Made by a program: the position numbers and the translations under genes. The notes under the pieces are model-generated. The model was not told where the DNA came from. It was given only the letters and a program-made list of their open reading frames with translations, and did no database searches. A stretch of DNA of 62,647 nt, the filler included, from Reclinomonas americana ATCC 50394 (taxonomy: Eukaryota), in assembly GCA_048213135.1 (NCBI GenBank). It is 39 parts of 39 records of this genome, joined end to end, with 100 filler letters (N's around TTAATTAATTAA, not from the genome) between each part and the next. Parts side by side here need not be neighbours in the genome. Positions count along the whole stretch, not along the records: positions 54,775 to 56,271 come from AFZH01025527.1; 38 more parts are not named here. One strand, 5' to 3'. This document shows, one piece after another, positions 54,641 to 57,868 of the stretch. The number at the start of each line of letters is the position of its first letter. Position 1 is the stretch's first letter.

Positions 54641-55044
54641 TGCGACATGATCATTTTTTCGCAGTGTTATTATTNNNNNNNNNNNNNNNNNNNNNNNNNN
54701 NNNNNNNNNNNNNNNNNNTTAATTAATTAANNNNNNNNNNNNNNNNNNNNNNNNNNNNNNNNNNNNNNNNNNNNTCGTCGGCGTCGTCTGCCGCTGGTGG
54801 TGGCAGTCTGATTGATGGCTTTGGCAGCTTTGGCTCCTTCCGTCCGGCAGCTACCGGGGCGCCGCCGCCCTCGTCGGCCCCAGGTGCACCACTCGGTGGT
54901 CGCATGCCATCTCATCAGTCGCCTCGATAGACGACGACGACGACGACGACTCGGGATTGATGTTGTTGTATGCCAGTGAAGAAAAGAAGGAATGACGAGC
55001 ATTTCACTATTCATGTGCCTCTGTGTGTGTGTGTGTGTGCGTGC

Positions 55045-56099
55045 TCACGGAGCAGCAACGGCAGCACGCAGTTCACCGCGCACAATCTCCAGCAGCTGAC
55101 CAATGGTGTTCTTGCCGACGGGAATGCCACTGCCGGCGTTGATACCCGCCCAGAGATTGGTATCGAGGAGCACGAGCTGCTTGTCGCCAGTCTCCAACAG
55201 CTGCGCCGCCAGCTCAGCATGCTGCGTGAACTTGGCGCGCAGACCCGTGAGAGCAATGTCGCGTTTGACGTCGTCCCAGTCCTCCCGCAGACCCTCGTTG
55301 GGCGCGCCGCCGAGTTGGTGAGCGTCGTCCACCGATTTTGCGGTGCGGATGCTTTCTGCAATCGCCGCGTTGCCGGCGGCGTACTTGCTCCATTGCCTGC
55401 ATTCAGAGGGGAGGAGTGATGATGTGTGGCACGATACAAGAGAGTGCAGAGCGAGTGCACACGCACCAAAAGTGCTCGACCGTGGGGAACTCGAGTCCAT
55501 CGATCGTGATTGGCGAGGCGGAAAAGTTCGAAAATGGCTGCAGTTAAAGGGATGTGAGGGGACTGGGATCAACATGAATGCGCTGCTGTGCGACTGACCT
55601 GCGAGTAGGTGTTGTCTGTATCGCGCATACACTCGTGAGCAGCAGATCTACACAGAAGAAGATGAAGAAGAGAGGGACGCAACAGAAAGGAAACACATTC
55701 GGTGACGTCAAGTCGAGTCGATCCTCGGGTGGCGCATCGTCGCCGGCCTCCACAATCTCCACCTCCGAGCACGTGTACATGAAGTCATCGCTGTGCTCCA
55801 CCTCGCCGCAGTGCATCTGGAATGCATCGCCATCTGTGCACAAACACAAAAAAAGCATTCAGCACATCACCACACTCGAGGTGAGCGGTCCGACACTGAC
55901 CGTCGAGCAGCGCGCCACACCCGTCGCATTTGATCATCTTGCGTCGTCGTTCACGCAGCTTGCGCTCGGCTTCCTCACGTGCCTGTCGCGCCAACTCCAC
56001 ACACATGGCCACAATCACCTCGTGGTTCTCATCGTCGAGTGCATGCAATCGCTTCTCCTCGTCCACCGAGGCCTCGGAGCTCGACGCAGTGACCAGGGG
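55045..56099 (-). CDS. OTU1/YOD1-like C-terminus plus C2H2 zinc finger fused to a NADAR (YbiA/RibX) domain; 5 exons visible, 5' truncated
   Basis: Exons 56099-55901, 55833-55684, 55615-55599, 55537-55467, 55396-55045 splice GT-AG in phase to give PLVT...ELARQAR...IKCDGCGALLDDGDAFQMHCGEVEH...VFPFYNTYSQPFSNFSASPITIDGLEFPTVEHFWQWSKY...LREDWDDVKRDI...AKFTQH..L...LLETGD...W...GKNTIGQLLEIVR. Confidence 0.85.
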
Positions 56100-56371
56100 C
56101 TGCGGAGGAATCCCCACAAGGAGAGGTGGGTGAAGGAGGAGGAGGAGGAGAAGGAGATGGGAGAGGAGAAGGAGGAGGGCGAGGAGGAGGAGGAGGAGGA
56201 GGAGGAGGAGGAGGAGGAGGAGGAGGAGGAGGAGAAGTAGAAGACGGAGAGCAGAAGAGGGAAGAAGAAGANNNNNNNNNNNNNNNNNNNNNNNNNNNNN
56301 NNNNNNNNNNNNNNNTTAATTAATTAANNNNNNNNNNNNNNNNNNNNNNNNNNNNNNNNNNNNNNNNNNNN

Positions 56372-57301
56372 AAAAACAATTGGAGGAACAGAACCCGACC
56401 CGCTTGCTGGGCCACGAGGAGAAACAATAGGGGAAACAACAGGAGAAGAAAATGGAGTAGAAGCAGTAGATGCAGTAGAATCCTTATACTTTTTAGAAGA
56501 TATTGCCCGTTTATACCAATTATTTATTTGTTTGGTTGTCGAAGCTGGATCAAGTGCTTTTAATTTTAATCCATCTGTATAATATGTAGATAGAAATAGT
56601 CTTTTATCTTCAATTGTCTTGGCACTAAAACCAGATGCAGGTTCAGGTTCAGCTACAGTTTTAGATTGTTTCATTTCTTTTTTCAAACGTTTGTTTGTTA
56701 TTGTTTCTAACCTTTTTAGAGTTGCAGGACCTTTTTTCTTCAAGTAGTTTTGATAATATTCTTCTGGATTTTCCAAGTATTTATTAATTCTAGGCTCTGT
56801 AGCTTTAATGCCAAATGATTGAATGAGAGTTTTAGCCTGTTGTCTTTTTAATATTTCAGGATCAACAGGTTTAAGAACGACACTAGCAGGTCGTTGCACA
56901 ACCGGAACAGGTGGAGGAACAGTCTTTTGCCCCCTTTTTAATTCATATTTTGTAAGCAAATCTAATTCTTTCTGTGATGTTCTAGGATCTCTCTTTTTAG
57001 ATGCAACATAGTTATTAAAATCACCATTTGACAAAGATAACAACTTATCTTCTTCATCAGCTAATTTCTTTTTAGCTTTATCATATTTTGCTTCATTAAT
57101 TACCTTTTGCATTTGTTCTTGATCAATCTTTTTACGCTTTTGAACTCTATCGTTCAAGTCTTGAATTCTTCTTTGTTGACCCTTTCTTAAATCGTTAGGA
57201 TCATTATTTATTCTCTGTGGAGTCTTTCTTTCTTGTAATACTTTACTAAAGTACTCTCTAATCTCGGCATTGCTTGAGCCTTTCTTAGGGTATCCACTCA
57301 T
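56372..57301 (-). CDS. Lys-rich orphan protein (>310 aa), intronless, AT-rich virus-like contig, 3' truncated
   Basis: ATG at 57301, uninterrupted ORF, A/T-ending codons unlike host contigs. Confidence 0.8.
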
Positions 57302-57318
57302 TATAATATACTTAGAAA

Positions 57319-57741
57319 TTATCTTTTACTAAGTCTTAATTTCAATCTTTCTAACGGTGTCAAATTCTTTTCGTCTAGTTCTATTTCCATTTGTTTTAGT
57401 ATCCTTTCCTCTTCTTTTATAGCTTGTTTTTCTTCCTTTGTTTTATGTTCAACATCAATAGGCTTTTTTAATTCAACAACTGTAGGTTCTTCTTTTTCAA
57501 ATTCCTTATGAGTTTCTTGAAGTTTCTTATATTCAAATGAATTTATTTTATCTTGCATCTTCATTATTGTATCACTCATGTTCCTTATTAATGCGTCATG
57601 CTGATCCTTTTTAGCTTTGTCTTCAGCTAGTTTTTGTTTTCTTTTCTCTTGCCCTTTTTTAAGGTTATCGAGTTGAGCTTGTGACATATTTCTTTTCTTT
57701 TTTATTGCGGTAACTTGAATAGGTGCATTAATTTCTTGCAT
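57319..57741 (-). CDS. 140-aa basic coiled-coil orphan protein, virus-like contig
   Basis: Complete ORF; KKKRNMSQAQLDNLKKGQEKRKQK; only 17 bp to the next ATG. Confidence 0.8.
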   Translation of the reverse strand: MQEINAPIQVTAIKKKRNMSQAQLDNLKKGQEKRKQKLAEDKAKKDQHDALIRNMSDTIMKMQDKINSFEYKKLQETHKEFEKEEPTVVELKKPIDVEHKTKEEKQAIKEEERILKQMEIELDEKNLTPLERLKLRLSKR

Positions 57742-57776
57742 CTTATATAATAGTTTGCGAAAATAATTAACGGAAA

Positions 57777-57868
57777 CTAGAAGGCATCATCACTGAATTC
57801 AAGAACAAATGAATAATGTTTATTGTTTAATTTAATCTTATTGCCCCATACATCAGTTAAACTGAATT
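57777..57868 (-). CDS. Putative minor capsid (penton, single jelly-roll) protein C-terminus, 5' truncated; not in the ORF track
   Basis: Minus-strand translation FSLTDVWGNKIKLNNKHYSFVLEFSDDAF* fits the terminal xxLxDxxGxxxxLNxxxxSFxLEF pattern of PLV/Polinton/virophage/NCLDV pentons; only 29 aa visible. Confidence 0.6.

Follow-up and report, generated by a model that had tools for sequence, protein, structure and literature searches.

Locus and gene model

The window, the whole 62,647-nucleotide stretch of Reclinomonas americana ATCC 50394 DNA analysed here, is made of contigs of ~1.5 kb strung together with spacer runs between them. One of these contigs (54775-56271; C10060 of assembly G000) carries on its minus strand the 3′ part of a gene predicted to encode an OTU domain, a zinc finger and a NADAR domain in a single chain. 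The second haplotype of this contig, C10253 (L002), is 97% identical to it. Both contigs open within one pyrimidine microsatellite just 5′ of the first exon, and the start of the gene therefore lies outside the window.

For many genes (e.g. L001/L002, L009/L010 and L012/L013) each haplotype has its own contig in the assembly, which doubles gene copy counts, and contig breaks within microsatellite introns often split genes. A different contig of the window (56372-57868) has a GC content of 0.32, against about 0.52-0.68 in other contigs, and holds two intron-free, lysine-rich minus-strand frames with no Pfam match above cut-off; it is possibly a viral element or the DNA of another organism.

In the direction of transcription, the gene enters the window with the 3′ part of a microsatellite-filled intron (56100-56271, minus strand, as are the exons that follow), which separates the contig from two OTU exons lying upstream and outside the window. 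The first exon on the contig (55901-56099) encodes the end of the OTU domain, starting with P-L-V, then a long helix and the first Cys pair of the zinc finger (C190 at 55928 and C193 at 55919). The second (55684-55833) encodes the other half of the finger (H206, C207, H212 and C220), an acidic linker and the first NADAR strand. A predicted microexon of 17 nt (55599-55615) completes the motif F-Y-N, and the exon at 55467-55537 carries the NADAR stretch FSNF...PTVEH, with E275 at 55477. The last exon, which includes the stop codon (55045-55396), encodes the NADAR core, assigned by Pfam and by alignment to the structures 2b3w and 8bau.

The introns between these five exons measure 67, 68, 61 and 70 nt and are all GT-AG, and the predicted splicing leaves one frame open over 262 aa, in agreement with the earlier note on this DNA, which had described five exons and the microexon. 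Many in-frame splice alternatives exist between exons 2 and 4. The microexon was chosen on homologue conservation, because it alone yields F-Y-N, whose residues F, Y and N are present in 51/60, 44/60 and 55/60, respectively, of the full-length homologues described below. Other in-frame splices, a 49-nt exon model among them, lose this motif and were rejected for that reason. The GTTGCG donor of the microexon region recurs in an OTU exon of scaffold C61 (see below) and apparently also in the canonical OTU1 gene. We infer the splice junctions of the five-exon model from the DNA itself.

Scanned alone, the last exon scores 56.3 bits against Pfam NADAR (cut-off 35.1; E 5.9e-15), and three other exons of the contig, scanned against Pfam, gave nothing above cut-off. 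Of the differences between the two haplotypes over 789 coding bases, 14 are synonymous and 3 non-synonymous (Fisher p 3e-7), so the reading frame is under purifying selection; in the last exon their amino acids are identical.

The Pfam OTU model matches the genome in eight places, but not in the upstream exons of the fusion gene: L009/L010 belong to the canonical OTU1 gene, which ends in a finger of its own, and L003-L008 to other OTU genes. Searching with the canonical OTU1 exon revealed that scaffold C61 carries a paralogue (48% over 45 residues), whose two exons (G000:C61:118720-118960 and 119024-119178) lie outside the window. These encode D-H-D-C-L-F, W-G-G and G-Q-H-F-D, and thereby the OTU catalytic Cys and His, as the earlier note had anticipated for the missing upstream exons (G000:C61:118720-119178). 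Scanned singly against Pfam, the two exons matched no family. The gene upstream of them in C61 ends ~80 bases before the ATG.

The second C61 exon ends in HFD at a phase-0 donor, and the intron that follows crosses microsatellites before it meets an assembly gap; the first exon of the window contig begins with P-L-V at a phase-0 acceptor. Joined in phase, HFD and PLV restore a motif of the HYDPL type. A stretch of 22 bases is shared solely by the start of the contig and the C61 sequence before the gap (two matches in the 108-Mb assembly, none for the reversed control). Beyond the gap, the contigs of both haplotypes meet the sequence that follows it, and their first bases differ in the manner of a heterozygous bubble. 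We infer from these matches that the C61 exons and the window contig are one gene, with a joined model of 394 aa. Two separate genes, or a mis-join that would leave a zinc-finger-NADAR protein alone, could be argued from the gap, which is written as 151 N and must hold 1.4-1.5 kb, but this is hard to square with the unique overlap, the matching intron phase, the split of the HFD/PL motif, the open frames in which both haplotype contigs meet the far side of the gap, and the end-to-end alignment of the model with 60 single-chain homologues. We give such an error hardly any credence, and regard the OTU-finger-NADAR architecture at this locus as nearly certain.

Homologue family and OTU half

Searching cluster representatives with the last exon brought up 2201 proteins at E 0.001; the analysis drew on 150 of these. 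When ten long top matches were scanned with Pfam, OTU and NADAR were both listed in eight, with OTU above cut-off in six. A profile search yielded 112 proteins from 8000 scored candidates. The full-length homologues, on which all counts out of 60 are based, are those among 257 proteins that align from model residue 15 at most to residue 380 at least; they are 34-48% identical to the joined model, end to end. Two other searches were less productive: a word-based query for longer proteins, made with the last exon, returned solely a bacterial-type Macro-NADAR, and an Atlas search, in which a missing match carries no weight, gave weak zinc-ribbon leads for exon 1 and, for P0166, ordinary OTU1 clusters alone.

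Most family members are metagenome or transcriptome proteins. Homologues come from the dinoflagellates Polarella, Cladocopium, Durusdinium and Zooxanthella, the diatom Extubocellulus, Phaeomonas, Pleurochrysis (partial) and the EukProt entries GGOE and UC4, which we take to be a euglenid and a choanoflagellate, respectively. UniRef entries from Polarella, Cladocopium, Durusdinium, Zooxanthella and Phaeomonas carry the automatic name ‘Ubiquitin thioesterase OTU’. They are of the same family and architecture, so the fusion is already in databases; the homologues that the earlier note had allowed for exist, and full-length OTU-finger-NADAR proteins are common.

In a FastTree phylogeny built on 193 columns of the OTU and finger region from 80 sequences, with P0163 dropped, 66 family sequences stand apart from 14 canonical OTU1 sequences with support 1.0 and a branch of 0.94. 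The locus groups with Phaeomonas and four other sequences (support only 0.86). With a separate clade and many homologues, the fusion is an old paralogous family and not an oddity of one genome. OTU-NADAR is a genuine, conserved protist family, apparently uncharacterised, assembled from two known domains.

NADAR architectures were reportedly defined by de Souza and Aravind in 2012. Our search of the searchable full-text literature found no description of an OTU-NADAR protein or of sensors built on NADAR domains without the catalytic Glu, although the 2012 work may list the fusion. The available parts of PMC9503650 and of the Ectocarpus DUF1768 paper (PMC7922944) make no mention of OTU.

The OTU triad residues at the locus are D13/C16/H130/D132. 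Among the homologues the catalytic Cys and His are each present in 60/60 and the following Asp in 59/60. In a search with the family profile, human OTUD2/YOD1 matched at E 1.9e-38 and yeast Otu1 aligned through its finger; the first exon on the contig falls at the end of OTUD2/YOD1 and at the yeast finger. An AlphaFold model was made for the homologue P0154 (73 sequences; pLDDT 93.8, pTM 0.75); compared with OTUD2 (4boz) it gave Z 23.3 and an rmsd of 1.5 over 156 residues. On these grounds the OTU domain is predicted to be an active cysteine deubiquitinase.

The family has in common with Otu1/YOD1 (4boq, 4bos, 4boz, 3by4; PF02338, PF21403, PF24560) the OTU fold, the Cys/His/Asp triad, the WGG motif, the C-terminal helix and the C-x2-C-x12-H-x5-H finger. 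It differs in lacking the UBX-like domain, in having two extra Cys, in the appended NADAR and in forming a separate clade. The UBX-like domain is what ties Otu1 to p97/Cdc48. In 61/61 sequences only 11-44 residues precede the catalytic Cys, which leaves no room for such a p97/Cdc48-binding domain, and the paralogue is therefore probably targeted in another way.

The finger and the helix before it, which the earlier note had also recognised, are present at the locus. H206 and C207 are found in 60/60 homologues and H212 and C220 in 59/60. The two extra conserved Cys of this region stand directly after the first His (60/60) and eight residues past the second (59/60), and such a pair was not seen in the 14 canonical OTU1 tails compared. 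The Pfam finger family PF24560 was unmatched in 10/10 homologues scanned, which marks the finger as a variant. The extra pair might bind a second metal or act as a redox switch; both are guesses.

The NADAR half and its pocket

NADAR domains are known as hydrolases. The P0154 model matches YbiA (2b3w; Z 16.7, rmsd 2.2 over 142) and the Phytophthora NADAR (8bau; Z 16.1, rmsd 2.7 over 150) in fold, whereas a fold of the last exon of the locus from its single sequence was uninformative (pLDDT 50).

In the Phytophthora NADAR the distal ribose is held by E43 and E125, and the pyrophosphate by K50, R79, W89, R93, D130 and W133; hydrolysis is lost on mutating the E125-equivalent acid (shown in the E. 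coli C7 NADAR) or K50, and DarT1-associated NADARs use a shifted Asp (PMC11543638). Mutation of the acid abolishes hydrolysis in SCO5665 of S. coelicolor, and a Glu-to-Asp change is also inactive (PMC12945103). The catalytic residue differs among NADAR classes, being Glu, Asp or His (PMC11125620), and in SNA-3 conserved residues are missing from one of three NADAR domains (PMC9303266).

At the locus the position of E125 is occupied by Leu354 (55170). By sequence alignment the position is acidic in 0/60 homologues, which have Cys, Leu, Asn, Met or another non-acidic residue there and no His. Glu occupies it in 64/98 other NADAR domains among the matches listed from the last-exon search of cluster representatives, domains below 55 bits or shorter than 125 residues having been dropped. 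The ‘full NADAR signature’ that the earlier note read here thus lacks the Glu of the catalytic strand. With the catalytic residue gone, the second half of the protein probably recognises a mark and does not cut it.

The locus retains equivalents of E43, K50, W89, K93 and W133. The ribose-binding E43 corresponds to E275, a Glu in 53/60 homologues; K282, W318, K322 and W360 are kept. Across the family the contacts are kept unevenly: K/R50 in 25/60, R79 in 0/60, W89 in 46/60, R/K93 in 58/60, a D130-like Asp in 54/60 and W133 in 57/60. E43, K/R50, W89, R/K93 and W133 all occur together in 17/60 homologues and at the locus, and the lid that includes W89 is deleted in 12/60. In sum, the NADAR hydrolases (YbiA 2b3w, Phytophthora 8bau, DarG1; PF08719) and the fusion family have in common the fold, a Pfam score above cut-off and the E43, W89, R/K93 and W133 contacts; the fusion family differs in having no catalytic Glu, Asp or His, a shorter loop before the Trp, a degenerate or deleted lid and a fused deubiquitinase.

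A family motif D-x-D/N-x-W is encoded at 55164-55150, with D356 in 52/60 homologues and D/N358 in 59/60. D356 is the Asp two residues past the lost Glu position, and could be a relocated catalytic acid. The protein would then be a bifunctional enzyme, its NADAR still an N-glycosidase acting through Asp356 or Asp358 to remove ADP-ribose from a base or a protein, with ubiquitin taken off by the OTU domain. Conservation of the two positions is compatible with this, as are the contacts retained at the locus, the amino-acid identity of the last exon between haplotypes and the variation of the catalytic residue with NADAR class described in PMC11125620; but the E125 position is non-acidic in 60/60 homologues, Glu-to-Asp already inactivates SCO5665 (PMC12945103), and loss of K/R50 in 35/60 and of the lid in 12/60 is unlike a conserved enzyme. 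We consider a rewired hydrolase quite unlikely. The earlier note had proposed a bifunctional deubiquitinase and de-ADP-ribosylase; the active site, with an acid at the Glu position in 0/60 and K/R50 in 25/60, gives the second activity no support, and nothing was found in support of the suggested role against effectors of prey bacteria or viruses.

Erosion of the pocket past the catalytic residue would equally fit a domain without a nucleotide ligand. Such a NADAR would be a structural or protein-binding module that positions substrates or partners for the OTU domain through its family-specific C-terminal hairpin. The best-conserved part of the NADAR is indeed this hairpin with its helix (D-x-D-x-W-x-G-M-x-A-x-x-G; mean conservation 0.60) and not the lid (0.35), the 12 members without a lid still keep the fusion, and the whole-chain pTM of the P0154 model suggests a packed three-domain unit. 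Conservation of the 8bau contacts E43, R/K93, the D130-like Asp and W133, even in many lid-less members, speaks against a purely structural part, which we rate as somewhat unlikely.

The genome also encodes a more canonical NADAR gene (L012, L013). An intron-free canonical NADAR (L011; G000:C1:1343653-1344129) lies on a contig of >1.3 Mb with a GC content of 0.47, which is probably a co-assembled bacterium.

Proposed role and wider context

The reading that we favour, at slightly less than even confidence, couples an active deubiquitinase to a non-catalytic NADAR that binds an ADP-ribose-type group and so selects substrates or gates activity. The OTU domain of this ~394-aa, UBX-less paralogue of Otu1/YOD1 would cleave ubiquitin conjugates. 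The NADAR, its catalytic acid gone along with much of the lid on the adenine side, would keep the pyrophosphate and distal-ribose contacts; binding an ADP-ribose-type group without hydrolysis, it would target or gate the deubiquitinase. In this way it may stand in for the p97-binding domain that targets ordinary Otu1.

NADAR domains without the Glu occur in other settings too. Among 30 multidomain matches to the last exon scanned with Pfam, tandem NADAR was found on six EF-hand/cyclic-nucleotide ion channels, three FYVE-phosphatases and two kinases. The catalytic Glu is present in 0/21 such domains (channels 0/12, FYVE-phosphatases 0/6, kinases 0/3), a count that shows the existence of Glu-less domains and not their frequency, since matches picked for likeness to the last exon over-represent them. 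By analogy, channels, phosphatases and kinases are a context typical of sensor domains, which would suit a reader role.

The channels (P0008, P0010, P0015, P0028, P0030 and P0039) are EF-hand, ion-channel, cNMP-binding proteins with two C-terminal Glu-less NADARs, and are candidate ADP-ribose-gated channels. The NUDT9-H domain of TRPM2 may be an analogue for such gating. P0066, P0095, P0146, P0014 and P0081 are FYVE plus endonuclease/exonuclease/phosphatase proteins, or kinases, with tandem Glu-less NADAR. By eye, P0020 combines a Glu-less NADAR with a RING-like N-terminus and P0150 with a UBA-like tail; Pfam finds NADAR only in each.

The genome has 12 matches to PARP domains. It also encodes a Deltex C-terminal domain (E 1e-49), in front of which lies a RING-like stretch scoring under the Pfam cut-off. 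The Deltex-type gene (L021, L022; G000:C165, C186) has its DTC after RING-like and WWE-like stretches. With PARP and Deltex-type genes present, writers of ubiquitin-ADP-ribose hybrids probably are as well, though such genes are widespread and serve here as context only. Action of the protein on hybrid marks, which the earlier note had suggested, is conceivable on this basis.

For these hybrid marks writers and readers are known, and removal is by general hydrolases and deubiquitinases, according to the available parts of PMC12583694 and PMC13061329. The same portions describe RNF114/RNF166, readers of Deltex-made ubiquitin-ADP-ribose (MARUbe), which may be compared with OTU-NADAR in that an ADP-ribose module and a ubiquitin enzyme share one chain. 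They differ in being RING ligases with a Di19-UIM reader, and the likeness is functional only.

A further step, speculative and in our judgement distinctly improbable, would make the family a dedicated protist reader-eraser of ubiquitin-ADP-ribose hybrids that opposes PARP and Deltex, and the Glu-less NADARs an unrecognised class of ADP-ribose sensors. The dead NADAR would hold ADP-ribose while the OTU domain cuts ubiquitin or its chain, and Glu-less NADARs would also gate ion channels, kinases and lipid phosphatases of protists.

A conserved fusion of a deubiquitinase to a NADAR that has lost its catalytic residue in every member examined points to a reader role for the NADAR and to an interplay of ubiquitin with ADP-ribose beyond animals. 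Whether a dedicated eraser exists can be tested directly on a small, well-modelled single-chain protein from coral symbionts and a diatom. For protists more generally, Pfam NADAR matches are not necessarily enzymes.
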